Shown piece after piece: positions 3 to 44,000 of a stretch of 64,000 bases of DNA (the stretch's first letter is position 1; every line of letters starts with the position of its first letter). The notes under the pieces are model-generated. The model was not told the origin of the DNA, did not search any database, and worked only from the letters and a program-made list of their open reading frames with translations. The translations under genes were made by a program, and so were the position numbers. Source of the DNA: a virus (Duplodnaviria > Caudoviricetes); the IMG/VR virus record IMGVR_UViG_3300033273_000282, positions 1 through 64,000 of that record; one strand, given 5' to 3'.

Positions 3-170
3 CACCCAGAGTATAAGACGGATGAAGATGAGATCTTTATCCCACGTAAGTCATTCAAAGAGGATGTAACAGAAGCACTACTCGAAGCAAATCAAAAGTT
101 CTGGAATAGTGGTAATGATGGATATCCCATTGATACCTCATTGGATGATGTTTTTCCTGATGAGAGATAA
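3..170 (+). CDS. 3' end of a hypothetical protein (truncated by window)
   Basis: Frame 3 is open from the window start (HPEYKTDEDEIFIPRKSF...DDVFPDER) to TAA at 168-170. Confidence 0.6.
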   Translation, partial: HPEYKTDEDEIFIPRKSFKEDVTEALLEANQKFWNSGNDGYPIDTSLDDVFPDER

Positions 171-324
171 AATAGTCTTCGCCCTACCATTCATACAAAT
201 CATCATAGCATTAGTAACACTATCACGTTTACCTGAACCACCACCACAATACTTCTGTCAACAATCATCATACAATCTAATCGTATGTAATCCTAACAGT
301 CCAGTTAATCTACAACTACGATGA
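160..324 (+). CDS. small putative membrane protein
   Basis: MRDKIVFALPFIQIIIALVTLSRLPEPPPQYFCQQ...; hydrophobic N-terminus; overlaps both neighbouring genes. Confidence 0.4.
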   Translation: MRDKIVFALPFIQIIIALVTLSRLPEPPPQYFCQQSSYNLIVCNPNSPVNLQLR

Positions 325-917
325 GAGATCTTAAAGAAGTAATATACAAAGGTCATGTAATGCCTGGATATTATATTAATACTAACTCAGAACTATTCAC
401 TACAAGAGTATCTGGTTCAATGGGTATTAATCGACATACTAGAAATAGATTATCATTACATGCTCATTGCTACTCTCAACCATTACGTCAAGTGAAAGGT
501 GTCAAGTATAAGACAGGTAAAATACTTTATCGTCTTGGAACTAGATACACTCACTATGAACAATATAATATCATAGGTAATGAAGTTGGTGTACATGCTC
601 ATCGATTAGTAATGGAAACATATAATCCTTTCCATGATAATATACCTACTGACTTACAACCTTATTGGGATACTCTTCCAACAGTTGTACAAGAATATAT
701 CTACAATGGTATGACTGTAGATCATATTAACCCAGATAAATCAAGACACGATTACAATTATCTCTCTAATCTACAATGGATGACTCATAGAGAGAATCTA
801 ATCAAAAGAGATAACATTATAGGTAACTTTTCCACAGTTGCGGAAAACGTTGTGGAAAAACCTGTGGAAAATAAATGTATTAAAAAACATAGGGTAAGTG
901 TTCTATCATTCGTTTAA
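321..917 (+). CDS. HNH (homing-type) endonuclease
   Basis: HRLVMETY...TVDHINPDKSRHDYNYLSNLQWMTHRENL matches the HNH_3 pattern; N-terminus resembles a NUMOD4-like segment. Confidence 0.85.
   Translation: MRDLKEVIYKGHVMPGYYINTNSELFTTRVSGSMGINRHTRNRLSLHAHCYSQPLRQVKGVKYKTGKILYRLGTRYTHYEQYNIIGNEVGVHAHRLVMETYNPFHDNIPTDLQPYWDTLPTVVQEYIYNGMTVDHINPDKSRHDYNYLSNLQWMTHRENLIKRDNIIGNFSTVAENVVEKPVENKCIKKHRVSVLSFV
828..871. promoter_or_regulatory. cluster of DnaA-box-like 9-mers (TTTTCCACA)
   Basis: TTTTCCACA at 828-836 (+); TGTGGAAAA at 851-859 and 863-871 (-); one-mismatch TGCGGAAAA at 839-847. Confidence 0.7.
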
Positions 918-18500: not shown

Positions 18501-19315
18501 ACCTAAACAGAGTTGCCCTGAGAAAAGTTCAAACTTCTGCTCAACCATTCATTATGCACCATAGGGCGACTGAGATTGCTAATTCTGTACAGGACATAAA
18601 CACTGAGTTTACTACTGTAAGTCTTGTACTTGGTGGTGTATTTGGTAGTGCTTCTGGTGGTACGGAAATTGATTACAGATCTGCTGTTGTTGACTATATT
18701 ATTGAAGAGTACGTTCTAGAAACTTTCATTAGACTCAGATCCCTCAGTTCCACTGGTGCTAGAAATACAGTCACTCTTGCTGATCCATATAATGAAGTTA
18801 CTAGGAGAGATGGATCTGTTGCTACTGTAGAAAACAGAGATCAGTCACAACCCTCTGGATTTGAAGAGTATTCTCTTGGTAATGCTGGTTTGACATTGGG
18901 TATTTTTGAAACTAATGCTAAGGTTGATAGTGGTATTGCTTCTGGTCTAACCATTGCTGACGTAGATGCTATCTACCCAACATTGAGCATTCGTGACTTT
19001 GACTTTAGAGAAAATTCTGCTCTACTTGGTAATGGTGATAGATTCAACCTTGGTATTCCTACCTATCAACAACCAATGTCTGAGGTTGTTAATGGTATCA
19101 ATTTCCAAGGTGAAATGACACTAGATTCTAACGAATATTTCCCTGCTTCGGGACATATTATAATTAGAAACAATAGTGGACTATATATTGATACCTTGTC
19201 TGTAATCTCTTATACTGGCAAGAGCGGCACCAACACATTGACTGGATGCCAACTAGAGAGAGGAGTCGGTTTCCCAACTGGTGGAGACTTAGCAACTCCC
19301 TTCTCTATCGTATAA
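9569..19315 (+). CDS. g7: giant baseplate wedge initiator gp7-like protein (3248 aa) with a YHYH-like domain
   Basis: Position between g6 and g8; LIKNISSFYKAKGTDKSIRFLF; RLQDSYFYQDYSYVIKS...HPAGF; IIGYAYDGNPIYGP...GRFCVTPEYPNGTYAYF. Confidence 0.8.
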   Translation: MAAKKRRLSSLIESQLPGFIQYEYENFSKFVEKYYEQQESAGQPLDIVSNLSQYRDINFYEKNLLSQQSTLVSSILADGTSFEVENGDSFPEENGYVQIGDEILFYQTRSGNVFSEVSRGVSGNTTLGDLYTKSAFVTTAAAPHYQGDVVRNISNLFLYALVKEFEKTYLSEFPEAYLKEGVDKRSLIKNISSFYKAKGTDKSIRFLFNAIVTDDPLNVPEVIKPKDFTLKASVSDWTKNYSLKAKVNSGDVFSLIGERITQEIDGYDKGIEFAQAIVDNVISIGNDGQEDLYEVILEPSTVNGQFQVSGRTETTVLLSATASANDTITVKSTMGFPKTGKILVGDEVITYKDKTVNQFIIDQRLGPIRNHNIGKSVFRYSTITSGDVKITTLGLLYNILPSQQAPYSVSGDIVQVGDSGFQTNDPIVFDIILRRNRWRINESPSTQTVQIKGSDTQFVGDVGAVFEDDQYYYITSSSYPTGNILVDTQYTENLLDQKHLKLIRKQPVTTTEVYETSNRDVGIFINGVPALGYKSTEFVKQGAIESVTVENRGFSYANAPFVLVNELPNKARCTLNGSVLDEVEILTTESFDEDPSIRITSGEGAVLEPVITAGAITSMNIVNAGKYYSSPPVIRIVDQLGKGNFAEFEAILDSDGSITEVKKISKGRFYTRGYTNVFVEAVGKGAVASAKIKRWVYNRYEQIKNNLDSSNGTVFANYNPLRDYGYAYVANPVDARKKAYSSEGSYNTNLINENIHSPIIGYAYDGNPIYGPIGYSDPVDPGSSLTKLASGYDLKGSRPNGPDTGKYPLGTFIDDYEWVPSVNSGKTELDQNNGRFCVTPEYPNGTYAYFITVDANEVPQFPYILGNNFYSLPVDSNYNSNISQDDIPVGLKALRSSLSERNGSGFSALIQDVKKGNVSSGYVESSTDNFSPGNTVYVNNTRTDGSGAVVTVDHVTGVDVSSIECTQTKATQIKIQESGYLFAGDEITQTGEDGTVIASGELIGDVINASELVLRNVTGTFNTTRPINSETIVVTLVLDSDANFTAGATMRLTNDDNEDQATGEILESTTRQNSVKVKVTSNDNFVVTSDYYLRSSNLSDSNRVEIISINSLSTGLNPFSVNENIAIATTTENHNLGAGDQVVVDILPNDATTETEYYVRKRLYQTATALQPQHNSTITDPGIGSADVLNSGLGYTTDTYYEVELIFVDATQARNGVGLPGDAGNALATIDVSNPQGLGSGGVGSILITTKGKGYKKGDRLTVADADLQRSVNEPRPDRLILEVDHVGFAYNNTVLKLTNVNNLSQDDFIQIGPEVLKITGVDTTTDEVTVERGQQNTTPTNHYDGAAVTLKDGFYRFSDNFRPFGDDITKPYLNQYNTETHVIDVSYDYNANQPQVLSNSSSFFDSSIPQKLVQFQTVEEEAFKLEFSTDNTNFQVNPVLDVQKYYKYTFDVSHFSMLDTYLDFSSSANYNIFTEEKETSGIAPGNAGSFVSIKLGFGPAISTNTYQERRAINFQNYFYFIKVSPNVDTSGSYLRIIDDPLTGIKNVLYSTDTKFVYDVNETPAYDGSGTMSYITSARLAEGSIHSVKVVNTGEGYAQIPTVYGVQPTAVNEAFVDPVWDPVLQVVTGFNITDQGGGYSKPIVLLTDTDGIKYEYECSQLNGKLSQVAVLKQGSGFTYKPTAKIIESDVKIYLESDNIGLPQNVRINNPGRGFNADKSQLGSYESPTTFVLRNISDRFFSGEKIRQLTTNATAVVAQDGFREGSNLLKVVSINGVFDSGSEITSVLGSRTATLYAQLSTEFEPDVRSYVDNFGYYTSDRGKLSNANQRLQDSYFYQDYSYVIKSKTSITEWRDLIKKTTHPAGFQLFGEMVVESQGEAPMPTAQPSLNYVSTVELPPVQITSLSTQQLITLTQYKLEQLKVEEGRGSISIDTFDATETVAYNVSLSPAFDGTFDPSTGNLIGNTEFTLIDEKNGLALQLTKDEQLICTLDGIFQEPGKAFTISGNKVTFAQPPLGARVVEGQDVDPVKFYGRAIKFKESTFNDRYFRKIKSIADQFDGVKVDFPLYWEDGTIVKTDDTENLIVGLNGVIQKARTTETEPFGNSYSIIRDEDDTVADIIRFTKPPIDNEDLYGPPEELPEILKNYEQCFIYSIGSYERLKINSDLYEYRFGGPYLIQDEVTNSVRKIDDPKYALVFIDGVLQRDTDSYTIVGPNITFTKPLQFSKNPAGNRAVQDVNIILMYGRDVAKTLTFYDFEPFAYRNTITVTLRGTGIGARIRPQLDQFAGQNFHLKQDRTVIGKVKNVSVKTDDEAILTLQHNVNVDIDENTELEICLAKDTYTTYPITGPYTVEATYKTDDEGERVLEKNVPSWLFGVEAGLEAWNNKNSMFANLLPGDKILIDGESEYREIIRTPDQVYTKSYVNDYYIENEHYAKVQATNYDGDTEGEGLSITANVNQFGAITTLNVADVEFNQRDLSLFFDEGILLQPTAYEYFTTPEVHFIPVDGNGGGAKASVIAYGGQILDVVLTNGGSGYTQPPRVVVARRYKRIKEQTRKIDTLIEIKIQTEIDSVFSMIGQTEIRIEGGPFSPQAISSIITFGGFDPELNTNRQITAQINTLAGEERQVRMTDQKFPTVIDIKSPVLITPAVLDLNTDRILTQVIGGVVGFEAVATLENITTEEVNKIIQIQANKAFQPKGIPTSGGLGTFVDAPVSDTSTIIYAANTQGFPDTPARILVGGEYIYYRRKEDDRFLDVVRGYQGTTPGTHAPGTLILSQPEFTVLLSGGVNTIISEVSAAQSSITKIEKKAEIQSVAEEINVFTNTNEYKQVHQLDDTEVTLESVEKQITIIPPTSYNVVTETHSTSSRVSKATAGLSDVFGFIGEVLTAGPEVTEIQLTQEQQIEADNTSTVSSVSIGSVAATATSTSKVVTTSYESTVVTNTVAFDVLSTLTNVSTQVVENPQTRIDSLTSNIVTFTNLNLNRVALRKVQTSAQPFIMHHRATEIANSVQDINTEFTTVSLVLGGVFGSASGGTEIDYRSAVVDYIIEEYVLETFIRLRSLSSTGARNTVTLADPYNEVTRRDGSVATVENRDQSQPSGFEEYSLGNAGLTLGIFETNAKVDSGIASGLTIADVDAIYPTLSIRDFDFRENSALLGNGDRFNLGIPTYQQPMSEVVNGINFQGEMTLDSNEYFPASGHIIIRNNSGLYIDTLSVISYTGKSGTNTLTGCQLERGVGFPTGGDLATPFSIV

Positions 19316-19360: not shown

Positions 19361-21238
19361 ATGGCTGCTATTATCTCAGACAAGTTTAGAATTTTTAACG
19401 CCACCCAATTCCTTGAGTCGTTGTCTGAGCCCACTGGCGGCACAGACACCGACGCCGAGCGAACAAGGATGTATTTCTTTGTGGGTCGCCCCCAAAGATG
19501 GGATGCCTACCTCGAAATCTTCAACCAGAATGCTACCGCTTTTGTAGCAGGTAATGAAGTTTACATTGGCGCTAACTACGCTTCTGCCACTTTCAAGGCA
19601 ACAATTAGAGAAGTATACGAGAACTCCCTCCTTCTCCACAGTGTTGGTCCTCAGACTAACTCTGTTCCTACCCCTGGTCAGGCACTTAAAGGTTGGAACG
19701 GCACTGCCGATACCAACGCCGAAGCACTAACTGGTGTTTATCGTTACGCTACAGAGGACGTTCCTCCTGTACCTCTCGACAACCAAACCGAAAAGTATGA
19801 TGTTTATGACGACATCATCGCTGCTAAGCGTATTACTACTGACTTTGCTCGTAGTGTAATCCGTCGTTTCAACTGGGATACCGCTGCTAACCCAGTATTC
19901 GACATGTGGAAGCCTGACTACTCCACAACCCCTGGTTCTGGTGGTCAGATTGGTAAAGCTGCTGCTACTGGCGCTACCAATATTGCTGATGCTAAGTTCT
20001 ACTTGATCAACTCTCAGTACGAAGTATTCAAGTGTCTCTATAACGGTCAGAATCCTGCCAACCCAGCTGGTCAGCCTGTAACTAACGAACCAAAGACCAC
20101 TCCTTCTGCTGGTCAAGGCACTTACACTGGCGCTGACGGTATCTTTGTTGAAGATCCTGCTGCTAATGGTTACATTTGGAAGTACATGTACACCATCCCA
20201 ACCGATGACGTACTACGTTTCCTCTCCACTGACTTCATGCCTATCGTTCTTCCATCGGACGCTACTCGTCAGGCAACTGAAGCAATTGCTACTGGTGCTC
20301 CTGATTCCATCAATGTTGCTTTAATCGAAGACGGTGGTACTGGTCTAACCAACGGTACATACTATGCTCCTATCGTCGGTGACGGTGCTGGCGGTGCTGT
20401 AGAGATCACCATTGCTGGTGGTGCTCTAGATTCCGTAACCGTAACTAATGGTGGTTCTGGTTATACCTATGCTTCTGTTCCTCTTCAGGACGGTCTAGTT
20501 AATGGCGATCCAGGTTGGACAGGTGCTCCTATCGGTCTCTACACCGACGCTGGTCTAACAACTTCTGCTTCTGGTGCTGTTCCTGCTAACGCTACTGGTG
20601 CTATTGAAGTTATTCTTCCTCCTCAGGGTGGACATGGTTCTAACTTCGAAGAAGAACTCAACGCTAAGCGTATTATGACGAACATCCGTCTAACCTACGC
20701 TGAAGGTTCTGGTGACTTCCCTGTTGACAACGACTTCCGTCGTATCGGTATCATCCGTGACCCATATGCTGCTGGCGGTAGTACTTTCGCCACCGCTCCT
20801 ACCCTAAGTGGTGTTTATGCTGTTAAGGTCAGTGGTGCTACTGCTGACTTCGTTGCTGACGAAACCATTTCTCAGACAACTGCCTCTGGTGGTACTGCTT
20901 ACGGCACAGTCGTATCTTGGGAAAGAGATTCTGGTAACGCTGGTCCTGGTGGTGCTGGTGTTCTTAAGTTTATCCAGTCTCCTTCTCTCCATACCGACGC
21001 TGGTATCGTAAGACTCTTCGAGAACAGTGGTCAAGCAATTGCTGGTGCTCAGTCTCTTGCTTCTGGTACTGTTGATGGCACCAACAACGACACGCTCGTA
21101 GGTGTTACTTTCTCTTCGGGTCTTGCCGCTCCTGAGATTGCCAACAACTCTGGTGAAATCATCTATGTTGAGAACCGTCGTCTCATCACCCGTGCTGCTG
21201 ACCAGATCGAAGACATCAAACTCGTAATCGAGTTCTGA
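19361..21238 (+). CDS. g8: baseplate wedge subunit gp8
   Basis: MAAIISDKFRIFNA...YFFVGRP...WKYMYTI...FRRIGII...SGEIIYVENRRLITRAADQIEDIKLVIEF. Confidence 0.92.
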   Translation: MAAIISDKFRIFNATQFLESLSEPTGGTDTDAERTRMYFFVGRPQRWDAYLEIFNQNATAFVAGNEVYIGANYASATFKATIREVYENSLLLHSVGPQTNSVPTPGQALKGWNGTADTNAEALTGVYRYATEDVPPVPLDNQTEKYDVYDDIIAAKRITTDFARSVIRRFNWDTAANPVFDMWKPDYSTTPGSGGQIGKAAATGATNIADAKFYLINSQYEVFKCLYNGQNPANPAGQPVTNEPKTTPSAGQGTYTGADGIFVEDPAANGYIWKYMYTIPTDDVLRFLSTDFMPIVLPSDATRQATEAIATGAPDSINVALIEDGGTGLTNGTYYAPIVGDGAGGAVEITIAGGALDSVTVTNGGSGYTYASVPLQDGLVNGDPGWTGAPIGLYTDAGLTTSASGAVPANATGAIEVILPPQGGHGSNFEEELNAKRIMTNIRLTYAEGSGDFPVDNDFRRIGIIRDPYAAGGSTFATAPTLSGVYAVKVSGATADFVADETISQTTASGGTAYGTVVSWERDSGNAGPGGAGVLKFIQSPSLHTDAGIVRLFENSGQAIAGAQSLASGTVDGTNNDTLVGVTFSSGLAAPEIANNSGEIIYVENRRLITRAADQIEDIKLVIEF

Positions 21239-29370: not shown

Positions 29371-29570
29371 TGAGATATTTAAAAGTTGAAGGTCACGAAA
29401 ATCTTTATCGTGATGTCACCACGGGGGCGATTGTCAACACTGACAAACCCACTCCCAGAAACTTTTCTCGTACATTTAACAATGCACTAGAAGACATAAA
29501 TACATTGAAGGAAGAACTATCTGAAATCAAACTACTTCTTAGAGAGATCGTAAGAAATGCCAGCAATTAA
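29370..29570 (+). CDS. small hypothetical protein with a coiled coil
   Basis: KVEGHENLYRDVTTGAIVN...INTLKEELSEIKLLL. Confidence 0.8.
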   Translation: MRYLKVEGHENLYRDVTTGAIVNTDKPTPRNFSRTFNNALEDINTLKEELSEIKLLLREIVRNASN

Positions 29571-32500
29571 CGTTAGTAGAACAGATACCTTTGAAACTCA
29601 AAGGCAAAAAATTAATGAGATTGGTCAGAATCTATTTCAGATCTACCAAGGTGGCAGTGACTTGTCTACAGGTGTCCTAAGAATTGGTGACGGAACTGTA
29701 GGAGATCCTTCTCTAGGATTTATTAATGATACCACTCTAGGTTTTTACAAGGCAGGGCAATCTACACTAGGAGTTGCTGGTAGCGGAAAGAAAATTTTTG
29801 ATTATCAACCATCAGAATCAGTTAGTTACCAAGATTTTATTGTAAGAAGAAGTAGTCTCGTAACTACAGGACTAGCACTTACTAGTGGTGGTAGTGGTTA
29901 TGACGAAGGCACTTATCTAGCAGTTGGAATTACTGGAGGAACAGGACAATCTGCTGAAGCCACATTTACAGTAGTTGGTTTTTCTGGTGTAGTAGTACAA
30001 CCTGGAGAAAACTATAACGTAGGAAGTTATTCTTCCGTTCTTGTCAACAACAGCACGGGTACTATTGGTGCCGATCCTGCTATAATTTCATTCACTGTTC
30101 CTGGAATTGATGGAGACATTACTGATGCTGGATCTGGATATCGCCCAGGTGTCTATCTAAATCAAGGTTTTACTGGTGGTAATGGCACTGGCGGCTCCGC
30201 TAATATTACTATTGAGGGAACTGTAGCATTAGGTATTCAAATTAATAATGCTGGTAGTGGACTAGCGGATGGTGAATATCCAGAAATTCCAGTTCTTAAT
30301 ATACCAGCTAATACTTTTGTAGTAACCACTATTACAAATCCAAATGGACCACCTCCAAATAATGTATTCCAAATTGACGGTGTTACTCAACCCACTTTGG
30401 ATCTTTATGAAGGTAATACATATCATTTTGATATTTCCGATGCTACCAATGAAGGACATCCATTTTCAATTAGAGGAGCAGGTGGGTCAACACTAGACAC
30501 TTCGGCTTTCGTAGTTACAAAGTACGGAAATGACGGTGCTGCCAACTCTATTGTTGAAGTTGTTGTAAGACGTAACGCTACTTATACATCTTTGAACACT
30601 GCTATCGAATATTTCTGTGAACAACATGATGGCATGGGTGGATCGGCTAATATTAATAATACTGGTCCAATAGGTTTAACAAGCTCAGCAGCAGGAGGCT
30701 TAGCTACCATTACTGTTGCTGGTGGTGTTATTACAGTAGTTGATTTTATAGGTTCTGCTGCCAAAAACTATGCGTCTTTGGGATCATCTGAATTAACATT
30801 ACATGGACCATCTATTGGTGCTACTACTAATACAGTAGGTGAATTCCAGATTGTGACGGAGACAATTACTGGAACAGTGACAAGCGTTTTTCCTGTTGAT
30901 ACAGGAATTGATTATGATAATGGTGATGTTCTAGGATGGAACAACCTAAGCAGTACACCAGGATCTGGTTTTGAATATACTTTAAATGTAGATCCAGGAA
31001 GCGTTTCTGATATCTCCTTTAGTTCTTATGGATCAGGGTATTCTGCTAATGATGTACTAACTTTACCATCTCAGATATCTGCTAGTGGTACTATTTCTTT
31101 TGTTGATGATTCTTTCGAAATTGAAGTACCAAATTTATCTCAAGCAATTGCCGAAGGTCTTGCTACTGGATTTATTGTTCAAGGAAACAATATTCCTGCC
31201 GATACTACTTTAGAAAGTTTTGACACTACAACAAATATAATTATTCTTAGTGCCGAACCAGCTGGTACAGGTAGTGTAAGTTTTAGTTTTCTTCCTCCAT
31301 GGGGAATTGGGGCAGGATCCAACGAATTTGAATATGAAATCGAACAAGTTGGTGTAGTAAATTCTGTTGTCATTACTGATGGAGGATTTGGATATTCTTC
31401 AGGAGATGTAGTTTCTGTAAATTCTGGAGATCTAACATCAGCAATCACAAAAGTTGTAACTGCTGGACCAATTCAAGAATTGACTTTCAGTCCTGCTCTT
31501 GCTACAGGATCAATTGCTGTAGGCGATTCTCTAAAAGTTCAAGACGGAACAATTGAAAGTGGCACAGCAACAGGAACCACTACGTCAAGCGGTGGAGAAT
31601 TTACAGTATCACAAAGTTCTACAACTGGATCTGGTATAGGTGCTTCTTTCTTGGTTACTAGAGGTGATGGTGGTGAAGTAGGTGCTTTGGGTGAAATTGT
31701 TTCTGTTGATATTGTTGATGGTGGTTTTGGACACGCTGTTTCTGATCAAATCACACTTCTAGGAGCGTCAGTTGGTGGATCTACTCCAGCAGATAATATT
31801 ACTTTCGTTGTAGAAGGTGTTACCGAATCAACATTGGCAGTTGTTAGAAGTGTTCCTTCTGGTCCTATTTCATCTATACTAATTGATGGTGTTGGATTCG
31901 CTGATGCTGATGTATTAGTAGAAGATGGAACAACTTCTCCAACATTTACTGTTGCTACTGCTTCCGTACTGTCGTCAAGATTTTTCATTGATGACGATCT
32001 TCATCCAGATTTAACACTTTATTCTGGAGACACATATAGATTTGATTACACTAGCAGCACTGTTACTGGTGATGGTACATTATTTAAATTAAGTGTTGTT
32101 CCTGATGGAAAGTATTACCTAGTAGAGAACTTAACTGCTGATTTAACACAAGGATCAAATCAAGTAACATTTTCGGATGTTACTGGATTAGTGATTGGTC
32201 TGGGTGCTGCTGTTACTTTTGGTGAAGGTGCTGTACCTGCTAATACAACTATTACTGCTATTGATGGAACTACAGTAACACTCAGCAACCCAGCGACTGT
32301 TGGTGGTAGTGCTACATTTACTTTCAGTGGAACTGAATATACTGATGGAGTTAGTGTAGTAGAAAATGTTCTAACGATTACTATTAATGATAGCACACCA
32401 GATTTATATTTTTATTCCTCTAGTGTAGCAGATGCTGGTGGTAGTGATGGTCAAGAAGCGGTACTAACTACAGACAACAATAACCCCAAAACTTTTGGTA

Positions 32501-34479
32501 GTGGTCTTGCTCTTACTGTTAGTGCTATTGAAAATACTGATGTAATTACTTTTGATGTTGCTGAAGGTGAAATTGATTCTACCCAATTAAATGTCTCCGA
32601 CACTGCTACTATTAATGTTGGTTCATTTACAACTTCTCTTTCTACACCAGCGGCGACTGTAACGGCGCTATCAGCAGATTCTATTACTGCTACTACAGAT
32701 CTTGCTGTTACTGCTACTAACACCAATTTTTCCTCAAATGTAAATATTGGCAATTTTCTCACTGTTGCTCAAGATACTGGAAAGGTAGAAACTTCTGGAG
32801 AAATTAAAACTTTTAATAAGTTTAACTCTAATGATCTTTTGTTTATCGAAAATGCTGAAATTTCCACAGCTCCTGGAACAGCATTGATTCTAAAACCAGG
32901 ATCTACATCAGATGTAACTAAAGTAGATTCTGTTACTGCTCTGAAGATTCCAGCAGGTCTTGAATCAGATAAACCAGCTACCTCAGAAGATGGTTACATT
33001 CGTTTCAACACCACAACAAATCAATATGAAGGATATAGTGCTACTAACGGATCTTGGTCTTCTTTGGGTGGTGTACGAGATCTAGATGGCAACACCACCA
33101 TTCTTGCCGAAGAAACTGTTGGTGCTAATGATAATACTTTATGGTTTATTAATGACAACATTAATACCATGAAGTTCTCTCCTAATTACATGGAGTTTGT
33201 GGATGTCAAGAAGGTTAGATCTATTAACACTTCTGCTCCAGCTTTTACTAACTGGGTGGCAAATGCAACTTTGACAGCAGGTGATTATGTAAAGTATGGC
33301 AATAACATCTTCCTAGTTGTTTCTAGTGGACAAGCAGCAACATCAGGTAGTGAACCAACAGATACTTCTGGTAATGATTTCTCTAATGGTAGTGCTACCT
33401 TAAGATTCTATATCACTGCTGTATCATTTATTACATTTGAAGAAGTATCTGAAGTTCGTATTGACCCAGCGGGATATACAGATCTAGTCATTAACAATGA
33501 ACTAAGGTTCTCTAACAACAATATCTCATCTACTCTAAATGATATTCTATTCTCTCCTAGTTCAGGAAAGAAAGTCAAGATTGATGCTCCGACATCACTT
33601 GTGCTTCCTGTTGGAGATAACAACTCCAAAGGTTCTCCAGAGCAAGGATCTGTTAGATATAACACAGATGATAATCAGTTTGAAGGATACAACGGTGCTC
33701 AGTGGGGCGGACTTGGTGGTGTCAAAGATATTGACCAGGATACTGAGATCAGGGCAGAGTCTGCTCCAGGCGCTGATGAAGATATTTTATTCTTCAAGAA
33801 TGGTGGTAACAATACTCTAAGGGTTACTCAAACTGCCATGGAGTTTGACTCTATGGATACTATCAGTAGTGTCACCAGTAATACACTGAACCTAGAAGCA
33901 ACTGAAGTTACTTTTAATTCTCTTGCTCTTACTATCGACACGGATGCTGTTGACACTTGCTTCTTACTATCCACGAGATCCCAATTTGATATTGGTCTTT
34001 CTTCTGGTTTGAATACCGATCACTTAATTAGATTTAATAATCTTGGCGAGACCATTTACAATCTTGGATTCGGAACTGGTACGGATGATAATATCACTAT
34101 GTTGAATAGTGATCTAACAAACATTAATTATAAAAATGTTAGGTTCTCTACCACTAAACTAGATCTAGAAAAAGGTTTGTTGAATTCTGGTAATGCCACT
34201 GTTTATAATATTTCTACAGAAGCTTCGGCAAAAACTGTTGTTACAGCATACAATACAACAACGGGAGACAAAGAAATTATCGAGTTCTTGGTTATTGATG
34301 ACGGAACCGACGTATTCTTTACAGACACCAACAATATCAAAACAGGAGCAGAACTTATTAGTTCTCTCTTTGATATTGATGGTTCTCAGAATGTTCGTAT
34401 TACTTTGACTCTCGATACTAATCTATCAAATGGTGATAATGTTGAAGTGACTATTGTAAATACTGTTACTAAAAGGTAA
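29557..34479 (+). CDS. baseplate-attached fibre/structural protein (1640 aa) with nested repeats and a cupredoxin-like insert
   Basis: N-terminus TDTFETQRQKINEI; GSGY repeats; two GxxRFNTxxxxFEGY-type motifs; YFCEQHDGMG. Confidence 0.75.
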   Translation: MPAINVSRTDTFETQRQKINEIGQNLFQIYQGGSDLSTGVLRIGDGTVGDPSLGFINDTTLGFYKAGQSTLGVAGSGKKIFDYQPSESVSYQDFIVRRSSLVTTGLALTSGGSGYDEGTYLAVGITGGTGQSAEATFTVVGFSGVVVQPGENYNVGSYSSVLVNNSTGTIGADPAIISFTVPGIDGDITDAGSGYRPGVYLNQGFTGGNGTGGSANITIEGTVALGIQINNAGSGLADGEYPEIPVLNIPANTFVVTTITNPNGPPPNNVFQIDGVTQPTLDLYEGNTYHFDISDATNEGHPFSIRGAGGSTLDTSAFVVTKYGNDGAANSIVEVVVRRNATYTSLNTAIEYFCEQHDGMGGSANINNTGPIGLTSSAAGGLATITVAGGVITVVDFIGSAAKNYASLGSSELTLHGPSIGATTNTVGEFQIVTETITGTVTSVFPVDTGIDYDNGDVLGWNNLSSTPGSGFEYTLNVDPGSVSDISFSSYGSGYSANDVLTLPSQISASGTISFVDDSFEIEVPNLSQAIAEGLATGFIVQGNNIPADTTLESFDTTTNIIILSAEPAGTGSVSFSFLPPWGIGAGSNEFEYEIEQVGVVNSVVITDGGFGYSSGDVVSVNSGDLTSAITKVVTAGPIQELTFSPALATGSIAVGDSLKVQDGTIESGTATGTTTSSGGEFTVSQSSTTGSGIGASFLVTRGDGGEVGALGEIVSVDIVDGGFGHAVSDQITLLGASVGGSTPADNITFVVEGVTESTLAVVRSVPSGPISSILIDGVGFADADVLVEDGTTSPTFTVATASVLSSRFFIDDDLHPDLTLYSGDTYRFDYTSSTVTGDGTLFKLSVVPDGKYYLVENLTADLTQGSNQVTFSDVTGLVIGLGAAVTFGEGAVPANTTITAIDGTTVTLSNPATVGGSATFTFSGTEYTDGVSVVENVLTITINDSTPDLYFYSSSVADAGGSDGQEAVLTTDNNNPKTFGSGLALTVSAIENTDVITFDVAEGEIDSTQLNVSDTATINVGSFTTSLSTPAATVTALSADSITATTDLAVTATNTNFSSNVNIGNFLTVAQDTGKVETSGEIKTFNKFNSNDLLFIENAEISTAPGTALILKPGSTSDVTKVDSVTALKIPAGLESDKPATSEDGYIRFNTTTNQYEGYSATNGSWSSLGGVRDLDGNTTILAEETVGANDNTLWFINDNINTMKFSPNYMEFVDVKKVRSINTSAPAFTNWVANATLTAGDYVKYGNNIFLVVSSGQAATSGSEPTDTSGNDFSNGSATLRFYITAVSFITFEEVSEVRIDPAGYTDLVINNELRFSNNNISSTLNDILFSPSSGKKVKIDAPTSLVLPVGDNNSKGSPEQGSVRYNTDDNQFEGYNGAQWGGLGGVKDIDQDTEIRAESAPGADEDILFFKNGGNNTLRVTQTAMEFDSMDTISSVTSNTLNLEATEVTFNSLALTIDTDAVDTCFLLSTRSQFDIGLSSGLNTDHLIRFNNLGETIYNLGFGTGTDDNITMLNSDLTNINYKNVRFSTTKLDLEKGLLNSGNATVYNISTEASAKTVVTAYNTTTGDKEIIEFLVIDDGTDVFFTDTNNIKTGAELISSLFDIDGSQNVRITLTLDTNLSNGDNVEVTIVNTVTKR

Positions 34480-35048: not shown

Positions 35049-38000
35049 ATGAGTTTTCAGTTAAATTCTGATAGGGAACAACTTAGAGGTGTTGACTCTA
35101 CCATTATTGGTTCTAGTTCTGTCCGTATTAGGGCGGGTCAAGGCACAGAAGAAAGGGAGATCTTTCAAACTAAAGTTGACCCTAGTTCTGGACTGCCTAG
35201 AGTAGGTATCAATAGAACAGGTAGAAGAGTTGACTTTATTAAAGTTACTGCTTCTGGTCAAAATTATACTGATACTCCTACTGTAGAAATTTCAGCTCCA
35301 ACTTTGCCTGGTGGTATTCAGGCAGTTGCTTCTGCTACCACAGACGCTTTTGGTAGAATTACATCGATTGGTATTGACAATCAAGGTGATGGTTATGAAT
35401 TTGCCCCTACTGTAAATATCACTGGCGGTGGTGGTACTGGTGCCGCCGCCGAAGCAGCATTAGATATTATTGAGTTTGAGCTTGACGTTAATGGTGCTAT
35501 CAGAACGTCTACTTCCATCATTTCTGATACAGCAAATATTCTCAACCTGGACATTGATAATCTGGTTACTCCAGATATTAAGATCCGTGCTCCTCATCTA
35601 AAAACATTTATGAATGGTGGTGGAGAAGCATTCCCAACTTCACCAACACCTGTTAATAAAAACGATTATTTCTATGTCCTGAACAATGTTTATCAGGCAC
35701 TTAACAATGGCGTCACTGGTAATATTCCCCCATTCCATGATGATGGTATTGAACTAAATGGTACAGTTCAATTTAAACACATTGGTTATAGGATTGAAGG
35801 AAACCCTGACGTAAAATTCTATGGAGAAGGTGGAAATGCTGGTGTATTCCCACGTTCGATTACTCCACTACTTGGTGATAAGTCAGATAAGATTGCTACT
35901 ACTGAATATGTTCTAAACCTAGCAACAAACGACGTTGGTGGTCGTATCTATGTTTCGGAACAGATTGGTGATGACGACAACGATGGTCGTTCACCAGTTA
36001 ACCCAGTTAGAACAATCAAAAAAGCGTGTCAGTTGGCATGGCAAACTCCTGGTGTTAAGGAGTCGGTTATTGTTGCTGGTGGCAATTATATTGAAGACAA
36101 CCCAATTTCTATTCCACCAGATTGTTCTATTGTTGGTGACAACCTTCGTCTGGTTATTATTAGACCAAACAATCTAAACAAGCACATCTTTAAGTTTGGT
36201 GATAAGAACTACGTTATTGGTGTAACATATCAAGATAAAGTTAACTCTTCTGGTGCTTCTGTCGGCACCTGGGACTTTGCTATGGTCTTCGACGACAAGC
36301 AAAGAATTACATATGATGCCGAAGCTAATGGAGATTTTGGAATTAACTTCCCTGTTGGTCACCAATTCTTTGGACCAGAATCATTTTCGGCACAATTTGC
36401 TTTCAACAGCGGTGGAGCAAGTCTATCTTCTGGTATCCAAATCTTCGGTGTTAGCACTGGTACTCTAGGTAGAATTGGTGCTGTCACATTTGATATTACA
36501 GATACCAACAATCAAAACGTATACCTAGAAGGTAGTGTTGCTGATCTGGTCAAAGAGTCTGGTGCTGGTTTCCAGTCTGCTGAAACATTCCTATTCGGCG
36601 GTACAGGAACTACTTTCTGGAAAGGTACTACAGATTATGATCTCGGAGACGTTGTATTTGCTACAGGTGTTGATAACGAAGGTGGACTAATCGCCAACGT
36701 GTATACTGTTGTTCAAGAAGGTACTTCAGGCATTACTCAACCTGATCACACATCAGGTCAACTTTCTAATGGAACGGTAATCTTTGAATATACTAGAGCT
36801 GCCTACTCAGTCAACTTTAGTGAAATTAACTCAACTCGTGCTGAGGGTGAGGTAGTATTTGTCAACGAAGATCAGGAATCTATTCTACCTATTATTAGAG
36901 TAGATTTCTCACAACAAGGAACTTTTACTGATGGTTTTCAAAGTGATCTTTATGGTAATGCTGAAGACCTTGGTGGTGTTATTTTCTACACCAACCCACT
37001 AGAAGGTGCCAATAACATTCACGACTTCAAAGAAGGTGATGAGATTGAAATTACTGGTATGCCAGTTACAGGATCATACGATCTCACTTTCCTGAATGGC
37101 AAGCAAAGAATTTACAAAGTTCTAGAGGATGCTGATGGTCGTGCTAGAAGATTTGTAATTCCTAAAAAAATTCCAACCTCTTTTAACCTAGAACTAGAAA
37201 ATAACTGGAATCCAGATGATTATGGTGCTGTAGTTAGTGTTAAGTATGCTTCTAAGTCAGTTACCCTATCACTACTAAATTCTCCAAACAAGTTCCCATT
37301 AGCAACACCAGTAGCAAGAAGATATCAAGATGCTTGCCTACAAATCAGAAACAATAGAGACTTCATTGCTGATGAAGTTGTAGGTCGTATTAATGATCAA
37401 TTTAAAAAAGAATACTTCTCTGTATATGATATTGACGCTACAGATCCAGCAGCAGTAGTATTCAAAGTTTTTGCTGGAACGTCTACGTTTGTACACACAT
37501 ATGTGAGTGGTGGTACAGTAACAGTGACTGCTACAGGTAACACTTACAATATTAGTAACTTCGAATATGATAATACTACTGGTGTAGCAACTATTACTAC
37601 ATCTTCCAACCCTGGATTGGTAGAAGATGATACTGTACAACTAGCAGATATTCTAGTTTCTTGTGTCATCAGTGGCGAAGTTGTTGAGAAGACATATCCA
37701 AGTTGGAATATTCCTGTAAGTGATGAAAAGTGTAAGAGAGACGTTCGTCACTTCCTAAATGCTCTAACCCAAGATTTGGAATTTGGTAGCAACTACAATA
37801 TTATCAAAGCTGCTCAAAGATACTTTGATGCTGGACAGATTGAATATGTAGATTATGAAATTATTCAAACTGTTCGTGCTATCGAATATGCTAGAGAACT
37901 AGCAATCTACGCTATGAGAAAGTGGCGTACTGGTGATGGTTCTCCTGGTCAAACAGTGTATGTTCCATCATATGCTTCACAAAATGATCAGTATATCGAT

Positions 38001-41000
38001 CAAACAATTATTGATGATCCTGCTACTCCTGCTTGTGCTAACGTATATAATGCCATCCAAACTCTATCGTATCTCTATGTAGATGTTATAGCAAATAATG
38101 CTTCTGGTACATACCTAGATGCTGCTTATTTGATCTCTAGAAACAAAGATCACATTGCTGACGAAGCGTATCTAAGAACTAAGCAACAGTATCCTTCTCT
38201 TGCTCTCAATAACATCGATGAGCGTAAGTGCCGTAGAGATATTAATTACATCATCACTGGTGTTCTAAGAGACTTGGTTCTTGGTGGTAATACTGGTGCT
38301 GTATCTTATGCCGAGTTGTATTACACAGGCACTGGTCTAACTGGAATCCCTGCTAGTGAACTAGGTGCTACTAGATTTGCTTTCCAGAAAGTAAGAGACT
38401 TGTCTATTCAGGCAATGAGAAACTGGACCACATCTGCTGGTAATCCTGTTTCTCCTCTGTTTACTCTTATTCCTCAGTTTACAGATAACACCATTCTAGT
38501 TGATGCTAACGGAACTCCAACTTTCCAAGGAACTCCAACTGATGCTACCTACGATCCCGCTACTGGTGACTTTGTAATGACGTTTGCTGCTCCTCACGGA
38601 GTAACAACAAACGAATCAATTAGAATTGAAATCGAATCATTCGTATTCAAGTGTGCTATGGACAACTACAGGTCCGAGCACTATCTACCAGAATCTGATC
38701 AAACAGCTGCTACTCAACTTATTCCAGTAGATTCTGTAACTGCTAACACAATCACTATTAATGTTGGTGCTTCTGGTTCTGACGTAACTTTCACACCAAC
38801 TGACGCTACTTACGATCCTTCCACTGGTAACTTCACCATGGAGATCGGAGCCCATACGCTATCACTAGGCGAAGGTATTGTTCTCGATGACAATAGCTTC
38901 ACCTTCAGATGTGCTATGGATGGATATGATTCTCAGAAGACATATCCACGTCCTGGTATCGATCCTTTTGCTGGTAGGTCTATGAAGATCACAGGATCTA
39001 CAGAAACCTCGATTACGGTTAATGTAGGTGCTTCTGGTCCTAACAAAACTTTCCAACCATCCGACGCTACCTATAATCCTGCTACTGGTGACATGGTTGT
39101 CACTGTTGGACAGCATGGATTGGGTGTGGGTCGTAGTGTTGTCCTATCTGATAATAGCTTCACATTTACTTGTGACATGGACAACAACGCCACAGAGAAG
39201 TCGTATCCACGTCCTGGCATCGACCCATTTGCTGGAAAGTCCATTGCTATTACTAGCGTAGGTGTTACAACTCATAGTCCTTCCAACGCTTCCTATGATC
39301 CAGCAGCAGGAACATTACAGTTTACTTTAGTTGGGCATGGATTTAGTAATGGTGACTATATCAAGATCGATGATAATGCTATCACATTTACATGTGATTT
39401 AGATGGTAATGCTTCACAGCATACATATCCGCGCTCTTATGAGTATGCTAGTGGAAGATGGTTTGCTGTTCAAGTAATTGATGCTGACACTTTACAAATC
39501 ACTGGTCTTCCAATCCCAAGAGATCAATCTACACACACTTATGTAAGTTTTGCTCCCAATAGTCTTTCAAGACAAGACGGAACATTTACTATCAATGTAG
39601 GAACTTCTGATGCTGATGTAGAGTTTACTCCTACTAATGCTACTTACGATCCTTCCAACGGAGATCTTGAACTAACTATTGGATCTCATAGTTTGGTGGC
39701 AGGCGAGGGTATTGTCATTGCTGACAATTCCTTGTCCTTCAGCTGTGACATGGATAATCGTGATTCTACCAAGACATATCCACGTCCTGGAATTGATCCT
39801 TATGCTGGCAGATCAATCCCAATTACATCGGTTACTGCTAACACAATTACTGTAAACGCTGGAGTTTCTGGTCCTAACAAGTATTTCACACCAACTGCTG
39901 CTACTTATAGTCCTGTAACTGGTGATATGACTGTCACTGTTGGACAGCATGGTCTAGGTGTTGGACGTAGCGTTGTTCTAGAAGACAACTCCTTCACCTT
40001 CACTTGCCTAACTGATCCTAGTGATCCCAAGACATATCCACGTCCTGGACAGGATCCATTTGCTGGTAAGTCTATTCCCATTACTGCTGTTGGATCTACA
40101 TCTCACGATGTAACTGATGCTCCTTATAATCCTTCTACTGGCATTATTACACTAACAGTTGCTAACCACGGATTCTCCAATGGGGATTACATTAAAGTTG
40201 CTGATGGATCTTTAACATATACATGTGATTTGGATGGCAATACTGTTCAGAAGTCTTATCCACGAGCTGGTTATGACTATCCATCTGGGCGCTGGTTACA
40301 AATCAACGGTGTAACTACAAACACTTTCCAGATCAACGTAGGTCCGTCTTCGTACACTGGCACCCACACCTATGTTGGTGGTACTGCTAGTAATGCTATT
40401 GAACGTCAAGATGGTACATTTACTATTTTTGTTGGTACTTCTTCAGACACTTCGACACATACTTTTGTAAGTGCCACTACTAACGCTATCAAGCACGAAC
40501 CACAATCTACACATTATTTTGAAGGTGCTACTGCTAACTCTGTCAAGCATCTCCCACAATCTACACACACATTTGTTAGAGCAACATCTAACGCCATTAA
40601 GCATGAGCCACAATCCACTCACCAATTCGTCAGTGCTACTACAGGTGCTGTCAAGCATCTACCACAATCGGCACATGATTTCCAACGTGTCATTGGAACA
40701 AATGTAGTTGCTGCTTATCCTTCTGGTGGTAGTCCTGTTTGTGCTGATGTTGAAGCTTCGCTAACAACTTCATTCGCTCTGATTGACGGTATTCTAGAAT
40801 TCGCTGCTGATCCTGATAGTCCTACAGCAATCCAACCTGGAACTACAACAAAAACTACTGGAACATTATTTACTGGAGATAGTATTATCTCCTACCCAAC
40901 CAATGTTCTTAGAGATGCTAATAATAACTATGTTACTATCCGTGGCATTTACGATGATCTACCTATCATCTCAGCATCTCCATATACTCAGAACTCTTCT

Positions 41001-44000
41001 ATTATCTCCAAACTAGGTGGTAGTGGTGCTCTCATTGACGGTTCTAAAGTCAAGAGTCCAAACTGCCCATTCCCTGGTTTGTCTGACGGTAAAGCAACCT
41101 TCCCCAACCAGGGTAAGTCGATGGTTGCTTCGGCATTCACGATTGTTTCTGAACAGAATGGTATTGGTTATAAGGTTATTGAAGATGGTTATACTCAGTT
41201 GGTTTCGGTCTTCTGTATCTTTACTGTTGATGGTATCCTCTGTGAATCTGGTGGTTATGCTTCTGTCACCAACTCTGCTTCTAACTTCGGTACATACGCT
41301 CTAAGATCTGTAGGTATCAGAAGAGAACCATATGAGTTTGACGCTGGATATTCAGATTCTCAAGGATATCAACGTGCTTTCATCGATGTTGTTTCTGAAA
41401 GTATTACTGGTTTCACAGAATTTACCATCGACAACTTAGGTAGAATTCCTCTTGAGCATTATGTTGTCCGTGTTGATGGATATGAATCAGCTGATCTAGA
41501 TGATGAATACTTCATCGATAAAGTAGAAGTTCTTAGAGAGGGTCCTCCTTTCAGAGCAAGAGTTACCTTGACTGATGGTTCTGGCGCTGGAACTATTCAA
41601 TTAAGGAACAAGTCTACTGGTCTCACTGTTTCTCCCGCTTCTCTGTCCCAGTTAAATGTTGCTCTACACAGACCTTCAATTTGTAACTCTTCTTCTCACA
41701 CCTGGGAATTTGTTGGTTCTGGTGTTGACTACAATGCTCTACCAGAAAACGGTGGTATCAAGGTTGATGCCAATGAGCAAGTTTCCGAGAACTATGGTAG
41801 AACATACGTCTCTGGTACTGACGAACTAGGTGACTTTAAAGTTGGCACATTCGCTAAGATTGAGAACAGAACTGGTAACATTACCTTCACGGGTACGGTT
41901 TCGATCTCAGAAGTTGAATTCTTGAAACTGAGAGGTGGCGACGTTGTTGTTACTGGTTTCGATAACAGCAACACCCTTGGTGGTACACTGTCTTCTGACT
42001 CCAAACTACCAACACAGAAAGCAGTTAGAGACTACATCATCAACAACCTTGGTCAGTATTTGAACAAGAACTACTCTACAAACCCAGTTCCTAGAGCACT
42101 TGTTGAACTTACTGACTCTGGTCTAATTTCAGAATCTCAGTTACCTGCTTCCAGTCCAATTGAAGTTTACACTGTAGAAGATCAGGCAGCCAGACTTGCT
42201 CTTGAAGGTATTAGAGCAGGTGACATTGCTATTCAAGATGGTGAAGCATATATTCTAAACACCGATAGTGAGTCGCTATTTGCTGGAATTGCTGTTGATT
42301 CTTCACTACAGTTTACTGCTAATGCTATCTTCACTGGTAGTAATACTGGTGGTAAGATTCAACTTACTGAATATAGACAGGGTGTAGTTAAGAGAATTAC
42401 CATCCCAGATGGTGGTGGTGGTTCTGGATACTCAACTTCCAATCCACCAACTGTTGTCATTACTGATACTGGAACTACACTAGGTCACGTACCTGCTACT
42501 GCTGAAGCAGTTGTTGCTGGTGGTGAAATCGTTGCCATCAACATCACAGAATCTAATGGTTATTTTGGTGGACAAGGATATTCCGATGTTCCAACAATCT
42601 CCTTCACTAATACTGGTGGCGGTTCTGGGGCATCAGCAAACGCTGAGATTGAAAGCAGACTATATGGTAATATTGTTAACGCTATTAAGATTAATGCCAC
42701 TGATACAATTGAGTCTAGTGACGTTCCTTCTGAGACAGTAAACATTATTAGAACCGTTAATACTTCAGGTAGCAATAATGCTAACTGGGTATCTCTAAGT
42801 ACCTCCAGCGTACCTGCTGATAGAATTACAGACGGTCCAATTCCAACTGGTATTCTTGCTAACAACTCTACTGAAGCAAACTCTAATACTGCTCTGTTTG
42901 GTGATCAGTCATATAAGAAAGTTGTTAAGTCTGTTCGTGGTTCTGAAGAGAGATACTTCATTACAACAGCAGATGCTAGTGGTTCTGACTATTTGGTATT
43001 CCTATCAACCAGTCAAAACAACACTGGTCTACTCCTAATCGGTCACCAAGTTACTGGTGTAACTGGTATTCAACCTGGAACGACTATTACACAGATCGCT
43101 GATATCACTGTAGGAACTGACACATTTAAGAGGGTAACACTAAGTGATGGTTTAACAAATGCTATTCCAACAGGAAGTATTGTTGAATTCATCCGACCAC
43201 CATCTCCAATTCTACTAGAATCCACTTCCAGAACTTCTGGATTTATTGAGTCGGTTCAGATTGAAAATGGTGGTCAAGACTTCGCTCAAGACGAGGGCGG
43301 CACCTTTAACTATAACAACGTTGAGGTTTTGGGTGGTGTAGGAACTATCATCCAGAGGATGCAACTCAACTTCAGAATTGAGAGTGGTGTTGTTACTAAC
43401 GTAACTGTTGCTCAAGGTGGTGAGGGATATGAAGCAGACTTCACTATTACTGATATCCCAACAGAAATCGGTACTGAAGGTTCTGGTCTAATTCTACGTG
43501 CTAAGGTCAACACTACCGACAAACAAGAAGGCGACATCGGCATTGACGTTGCCAGAGTAACATCAGACACTCTATCTGATGAAGACTTTGGTACAGTTGG
43601 TGTTGCTAGATTCAAAAAGTCACAGTTTGATGTTGGAGACAATGGTTCGGTAGCACTATTTACTGGTATTGACTCTGGTCTTGATGCTGACTTGCTCGAT
43701 GGTAACCAGAGCACATACTATAGAAACGCTGATAACATTAACGCTGGTAGACTAAAACCTGCTTATCTCTCTGGTGAATATAACATTAGTATTACTCAGC
43801 AATCTGGTAGTACCGCTAAACTAACTGCTAAGACTGGTTCTCTTACATCCGATCTACCTCCAAATGATATCATCGATGGTATCACTGCTGATGTTAGAAG
43901 AAACGATGCTAACCAGTTGTTTGACCCAGCAACTAAAGAAGTTGATGGTGTTATCGTAAGTACAGCAACTGATTACAATACTGTACTTTCCTTTAGAGGT

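Follow-up and report, generated by a model that had tools for sequence, protein, structure and literature searches.

A probable hairpin arm of self-nested beta-barrels carrying a cupredoxin in a virion structural protein of a marine cyanophage

Proteins in which parts of the chain are nested inside one another have been described in two settings that bear on the locus reported here. In the phage T4 tail protein gp18, domain I lies within domain II, domain II within domain III, and domain III between the termini, which form domain IV (PMC3004832). In Si3 of the cyanobacterial RNA polymerase beta' subunit, several of the repeated beta motifs bring together segments that are far apart in the chain (PMC10895346). 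As nested insertion is already known from these two proteins, the arrangement that we describe is an extension of a known idea. It lies in a 64,000-nucleotide (nt) stretch of viral DNA, hereafter the window, which comprises positions 1 to 64,000 of IMG/VR record IMGVR_UViG_3300033273_000282 and belongs to a complete virus record of 200,309 bases. An open reading frame (ORF) at 29557..34479, on the plus strand like all features placed below, encodes a virion structural protein of 1640 amino acids (aa), in which aa ~98-629 probably form a hairpin arm of four self-nested barrels with a cupredoxin at the tip, a reading to which we assign a probability of about 0.8. Its distinguishing features are the self-nesting of one module, a natural depth series, and the presence in a virion protein of a tip that is formed by a foreign domain with a metal site; we found no paper on nested domains in tail fibres or on a self-nested arm with a metal-site tip.

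The proposed arm shares its nested chain topology with T4 gp18 (3fo8, 3foa). Domain I of gp18, a six-stranded barrel and an outward-facing domain of that phage tail protein, is also the top structural match of the repeated module, though at Z scores of 4.8-5.0 only. Whereas gp18 nests four different folds once each, the window arm would nest one module in its own copies, to a variable depth. The closest architectural analogue is Si3, whose sandwich-barrel hybrid motifs (8emb) likewise make an elongated fold-back arm of one repeated beta domain. Si3 differs, however, in belonging to another fold family (Foldseek E 1e-2, probability 0.04), in being part of a cellular enzyme and not of a virion protein, and in having no foreign domain at its tip. 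The module itself recurs in tandem GSGY-module proteins of phage and metagenomic origin, but there the copies mostly run head to tail, unlike the nested runs of the window protein.

The halves of the module were located with regular expressions and with hidden Markov models (HMMs) built from the family, one for opening (O) and one for closing (C) halves. Opening halves are of the type GSGY..G.Y..V..TGG.G..A..TFTV and closing halves of the type V.SV...G..Y..GDVL, the GDVL being followed in each closing half by a third strand of the type GSGF.YT. (the final dot being any residue). Opening motifs are found at aa 109-142 (starting at nt 29881; 41 bits), at aa 148-183 in a degenerate PGENY form (22 bits) and at aa 189-221 (35 bits), with a weak fourth at aa 231-247, directly before the insert (6 bits). 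Closing motifs, numbered after their proposed partners, follow at aa 436-460 (closing 3, nt 30868; 26 bits), aa 479-503 (closing 2, nt 30993; 31 bits) and aa 598-621 (closing 1, nt 31348; 24 bits). When the halves were aligned pairwise and compared with 500 shuffles, the z scores were 10.0 for O1-O3, 5.3 for O1-O2, 6.1 for C3-C1 and 5.5 for C2-C1, and in each case 0/500 shuffles reached the observed score. O4 and C4 are detectable through family conservation only. With u for the cupredoxin and b for a small barrel, the order of halves in the arm is OOOO[u]CCC[b]C. An initial annotation of this DNA had proposed three opening half-modules from 29881, a complete module carrying an insert, and three closing halves near 30868, 30993 and 31348. 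These halves and their coordinates are borne out, as is the complete module, which occurs contiguous and insert-free in two relatives (P0055 and P0056); that inventory missed the third closing strand and a second foreign domain, the small barrel of aa 504-582, which stands between the second and third closing halves in chain order.

AlphaFold2 folded aa 1-830 of the window protein, with 67 homologues in the alignment, at a mean predicted local distance difference test score (pLDDT) of 88.1. An insert-free homologue, L074 (aa 95-351, 257 aa), was folded as well, with a pLDDT of 91.0 and a predicted template modelling (pTM) score of 0.75. Topology was read from the model ranges covered by sequence-ordered structural alignments (VIA) to contiguous single barrels of the PDB, among them EF-Tu domain 3 and T4 gp18 domain I, which align about 57-78 residues to the L074 model. 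The inner barrel, residues 85..165/167 of that model, matches T4 gp18 domain I (Z 4.8-5.0, root mean square deviation (rmsd) 2.7-2.8, 70-72 residues aligned), the best entry for this range being 3foa_B (Z 5.0, rmsd 2.7, 70 aligned, 85..167). The middle barrel, 48..210, matches EF-Tu domain 3 (1eft, chain 316..403; Z 3.4, rmsd 2.9, 72 aligned), another six entries in which EF-Tu is present, including ribosome and Qbeta replicase complexes, and YgfZ, with 65-72 residues aligned over this range. The outer barrel is matched by 5xu0_A over 8..241 (Z 3.0, 70 aligned) and by 8vjh_B over 4..234 (57 aligned). The same contiguous PDB domain thus fits a barrel of the model whether this is contiguous, as the inner one is, or made of two segments that lie far apart in the chain.

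Because the ranges 85..167, 48..210 and 8..241 lie one inside the other, with limits that coincide exactly with the module borders predicted, the first opening half is paired with the last closing half, and so on inward, in last-in-first-out order. This is the pairing that the initial annotation had expected of an AlphaFold model, and here it is read from L074, the window protein's own fold being confident at the pLDDT given above. Local ranges, as for independent tandem domains, were looked for among the L074 structural matches, and neither 8..85 nor 166..241 was seen. As the scores are low, the matches speak for topology within the L074 model, not for homology to the PDB proteins. Foldseek searches with the whole models returned nothing significant apart from the cupredoxin, as expected for nested, elongated chains, and in a wide structural search with the window model the best 50 rows were all cupredoxin or small barrel.

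The window arm aligns half for half to L074 at 34% identity and is longer in two places: the tip turn, where module 4 and the cupredoxin add 217 residues, and the return loop of module 2, where the small barrel adds 75. Strands coincide in the two models, for example at window aa 118-127, 133-148, 214-220, 439-448 and 592-608. The arm starts with the opening half of module 1 (aa 98-141, 29848..29979; L074 model 4-47, the outer module), followed by that of module 2 in a degenerate GENY form (aa 142-182, 29980..30102; L074 model 48-84, the middle module) and that of module 3 (aa 183-220, 30103..30216). Only the first two strands of module 4 come next (aa 221-251, 30217..30309; model strands 223-231 and 239-248), with the cupredoxin (aa 252-366, 30310..30654) in the glycine loop of this module, and then the remainder of the barrel (aa 367-438, 30655..30870; model strands 381-388, 391-397, 412-416 and 426-437). 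The closing side of module 4 has the family consensus A..TV.GG.VT.V.....G..Y..GD.L. On the return path lie the closing half of module 3 (aa 439-480, 30871..30996; L074 model 125-167) and the first two strands of that of module 2 (aa 481-503, 30997..31065; L074 model 168-190). The small beta-barrel (aa 504-582, 31066..31302) occupies the last loop of module 2, and a linker with the last strand of module 2 follows (aa 583-597, 31303..31347; the start of strand 592-608, L074 model 204-210). The closing half of module 1 (aa 598-629, 31348..31443; 79 bits with the C1x HMM, L074 model 210-241) ends the arm. The small barrel matches 8eci_2 (Z 7.4, rmsd 2.2, 69 aligned, range 504..579), and its VIA matches also include accessory domains in the tail-tip, tail-tube and baseplate chains of phages; relatives have one or two copies of it (b or bb).

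For comparison across the family we collected 69 database homologues and 80 viral loci and annotated their halves, u and b. In all of the 124 distinct homologous arms (124/124) the openings form a run and the closings a second run after it, and alternation is found in none. The length of the arm between constant flanks ranges from 257 to 721 aa. Automatic calling gave exact balance of openings and closings in 68/124 arms, and the others are mostly one half out, owing to a weak fourth pair (O4 or C4) or a spurious leading match. Bracket calling with the 82-position HMM of the whole module was dropped as too noisy, since an opening half together with the first strand of the next module resembles a whole module; separate half HMMs and hand reading were used instead. 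In bracket notation the commonest architecture is ((((u)))bb), and the hand-read classes are (()b), ((())), ((())b), (((()))b), ((((u)))bb) and (((()u))()bb). Depth in the relatives is thus about 2 to 5 levels, with matched pairs of one opening and one closing gained or lost at the tip. The arm of L067 has two levels, and that of L074 is a pure three-level nest (O1 O2 O3 C3 C2 C1) with no foreign domain. In P0062 opening 3 is fused directly to closing 3; in P0055 and P0056 the O4-C4 module stands contiguous, without a cupredoxin; and L040, P0058 and P0064 have one further complete module. In 64 other arms, insertions of at least 25 aa relative to L074 are confined to two structural sites: the turn at the tip of the inner barrel (alignment positions 121 and 127) and a single return-path loop (position 199).

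The proposal of the initial annotation, that each domain is inserted in the previous one and that the chain runs out and back as a hairpin arm with the insert at its tip, is therefore supported, mostly through the relatives and the L074 model. As the arms of relatives are two to five barrels deep, the nested build looks like a natural means of changing arm length, and these homologues offer a natural series for studying the evolution and folding of domain insertions.

The following architecture would account for these data. Each module is internally duplicated, with two versions of a ~40-aa three-strand unit (strand, GxGY, strand, GGxGxG, strand), and the following module would be inserted at their junction. 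Insertion at this junction would send the chain out through four opening units and back through four closing units, last in, first out. The innermost barrel would hold the cupredoxin in its glycine loop, and module 2 would hold the small phage-type barrel in the equivalent loop of the return path. The two ends of the arm would then come together at a single point on the main chain, making the arm a stiff side branch, and gain or loss of modules at the tip would consequently leave the remainder of the protein undisturbed. Such an arm would serve as a spacer whose length can be adjusted and whose displayed end, the cupredoxin, is kept clear of the baseplate or fibre, probably so that it can touch the surface of the host.

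A different pairing of the same halves would give a simpler protein. If neighbouring like units were joined (O1 with O2, O3 with O4, C4 with C3, and C2 with C1), the arm would be a row of ordinary tandem barrels, in keeping with the homology of opening and closing units (hhalign probability 95%) and with the mostly simple tandem arrangement of the module in other proteins. Like-pairing would, however, be incomplete in L074, which has an odd count, three openings and three closings, and whose single-barrel ranges are the distant ones described above and not the local ones. Moreover, depth shifts among relatives by one opening plus one closing (2, 3, 4 and 5 levels), and each such shift would break two barrels. 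Taken together, this makes local pairing very hard to credit. Nor do we give much weight to the notion that AlphaFold has imposed false barrels on a repeat that is in fact flexible or beta-solenoid-like. It is true that the module has no solved structure and no Pfam family and that it matches PDB entries weakly, with no Z score above 5, but two independent models of sequences only 34% identical show the same strand layout at pLDDT 88-91, contiguous copies of ~80 aa behave as a domain, with more than 7000 related clusters, and insertions and deletions respect the module boundaries. An artefact of this kind is highly implausible.

An exchange between subunits, in which the openings of one chain pair with the closings of a neighbour in an oligomer such as a trimer, would fit the matched counts of openings and closings equally well, and many phage fibres are intertwined trimers. 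We nevertheless consider it improbable: in the L074 monomer model, which is of high confidence (pTM 0.75), every barrel is closed by a single chain, and closure of this kind is also favoured by short turns, the 3-residue B3-C3 turn of L074 and P0062 being an example. That all AlphaFold predictions are of the monomer only leaves room for such an exchange and is one of several points that weigh against the self-nested arm. The matches that reveal the nesting are weak (Z 2.6-5.0), and each is read from its first and last aligned residues. The topology of the window arm is carried over by homology from L074, at 34% identity, and not taken from contacts of its own. Automatic bracket counts are noisy, exact balance before hand reading being 55%. 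The label 'fibre', which is unproven, comes only from the neighbouring genes and from annotations as 'virion structural protein', and the location in the virion, the binding of copper and the outward projection of the arm are predictions.

The insert in module 4 has the fold of a cupredoxin over aa 248-372. VIA aligns it to a nitrite reductase domain (6tfd_A, Z 8.8, rmsd 2.6, 101 aligned, range 249..372) and, in further rows, to many laccase, NirK, auracyanin and amicyanin chains, and Foldseek matches it to rusticyanin with a probability of 0.99-1.0. The ligand residues are H301, C354, H357 and M360, the last three within one C-terminal loop (C-x2-H-x2-M). Among the 64 homologues with the domain, 56 have the set HCHM and two HCHQ, while most or all ligands are lost in the remaining six; across the relatives the set is kept or lost as a whole. 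The insert thus carries a conserved type-1 copper ligand set and is predicted to bind copper. With the blue copper proteins (amicyanin, rusticyanin, plastocyanin and the nitrite reductase domain) it shares the cupredoxin fold and an amicyanin-like ligand spacing, but unlike them it is embedded in a viral structural protein and is without a Pfam match. Indeed, neither the copper-binding models of Pfam (e.g. PF00127) nor any other family matched aa 262-368 at E up to 10.

The cupredoxin recurs, with its four ligands complete, near the C terminus of a putative tail fibre of the Pelagibacter phage EXVC032P Baldr (L082:1300-3573, aa about 610-705; 38% identity, E 6e-23), a position that fits a host-facing role. 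No paper was found on a cupredoxin in cyanophage structural proteins or in phage tail fibres. The arrangement in the window suggests how abundant ocean cyanophages may hold a conserved blue-copper-type domain off the particle, and it makes the role of this domain testable. Conceivably, recursive self-insertion is a general way for marine phages to tune the distance of a copper tip, with the copper site functional in adsorption, for example by binding or sensing a component of the host surface, although we think this unlikely. If true, arm depth and tip chemistry would together set host contact.

A second cupredoxin-like domain is present downstream of the arm, at window 31981-32330 (aa ~809-924), where the cupredoxin HMM matches aa 809-847 with 20 bits and a second small barrel (aa 858-924) follows. 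The family consensus of this domain includes GH.F, and its histidine is lost in this phage.

The module was defined from contiguous copies in relatives (alignment A3) as a six-stranded beta-barrel of ~82 aa. Pfam gave nothing above cut-off for the whole protein, its pieces or the module, and searching PDB sequences with either the arm or the module profile yielded matches at chance level only. In a search of 1.84 billion proteins, the A3 profile matched 7122 representatives with E no higher than 1e-3, and 2026 with E no higher than 1e-10. In the best 150 of the matched proteins the module copies are mostly in plain head-to-tail tandem, and the pattern of an opening run followed by a closing run is largely confined to the present cyanophage family, with proteins of 1300-1800 aa. 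An hhalign comparison of the first with the second half of the module shows the two to be homologous (probability 95%, E 3e-8), and each barrel is therefore a pseudo-dimer of the three-strand unit. An unnamed module is thus present in more than 7000 protein clusters, and its split copies defeat both ordinary domain annotation and sequence-ordered structure searches. Some of the proteins matched by A3 have up to 44 matched stretches.

A link of the module to the Pfam family Gp18_dom_I (PF22639; cut-off 27 bits) was considered and dropped. The cut-off was not reached in any of 14 contiguous modules (best E 0.015, in 2/14), in P0066 (19.8 bits, E 8e-4) or in this phage's own genome (11.6 bits), and homology of the module to gp18 domain I is accordingly not shown. 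The sole match in the phage's own genome, a weak one, is in a giant ORF (open frame of 2392 aa; G000:C1:142801-142860, L081), which may carry the same module. Contiguous module copies occur in P0068 and in the gp8-like gene neighbouring the 1640-aa gene. Contiguous copies or fragments of the GSGY-type motif were also noted in the products of neighbouring baseplate and giant structural genes: the gp8-like gene at 19361-21238 (aa ~320-375), the gene at 35049-46412 (aa ~100-140) and that at 9569-19315.

The phage is a T4-like marine cyanomyovirus whose nearest cultured relatives are Synechococcus phages. Over its full length (aa 1-1640) the protein matches phrog_6005, 'virion structural protein' (E 0, 1707 bits), and together with synteny this identifies it as the orthologue of S-PM2 p089. 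Upstream of the gene are homologues of the baseplate genes gp25 and gp6, a gene for a 3248-aa protein, a gp8 homologue and a gene for a 2690-aa protein; downstream are a gene for a 171-aa virion protein and a 3787-aa ORF, in which the half HMMs gave no more than two marginal matches, one opening and one closing, of 5-6 bits. This matches the position of S-PM2p089, which has gp8 and a giant protein before it and a ~170-aa protein and an annotated tail fibre gene after it. Given the phrog_6005 match and this position before an annotated tail fibre gene, identification of the 1640-aa protein as a fibre is plausible, though unproven.

Immediately before the arm lies a conserved N-terminal domain (aa 1-97, 29557..29847), recognized by nearly invariant columns of the family alignment as the most invariant part of the family, and modelled in the window protein as one helix and four strands. 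Immediately after the arm, window 31447-31950 (aa ~631-798) has the appearance of a second, shallower nest. A contiguous module at aa ~691-760 (closing-half HMM match at 711-734) is flanked there by a candidate opening at ~640-690 and a candidate closing at ~770-795, and the region is confidently folded in the window model. Further downstream, a motif of ~80 aa, G.IRFNT..NQ[YF]EGY....W..LGG...D.DGNT, occurs twice at window 33040-34040 (aa ~1160-1490). The motif is shared with gp7-type baseplate proteins of cyanophages (phrog_32294; gp7 of P-HM1 and P-HM2), and aa 1330-1496 are similar to such proteins.

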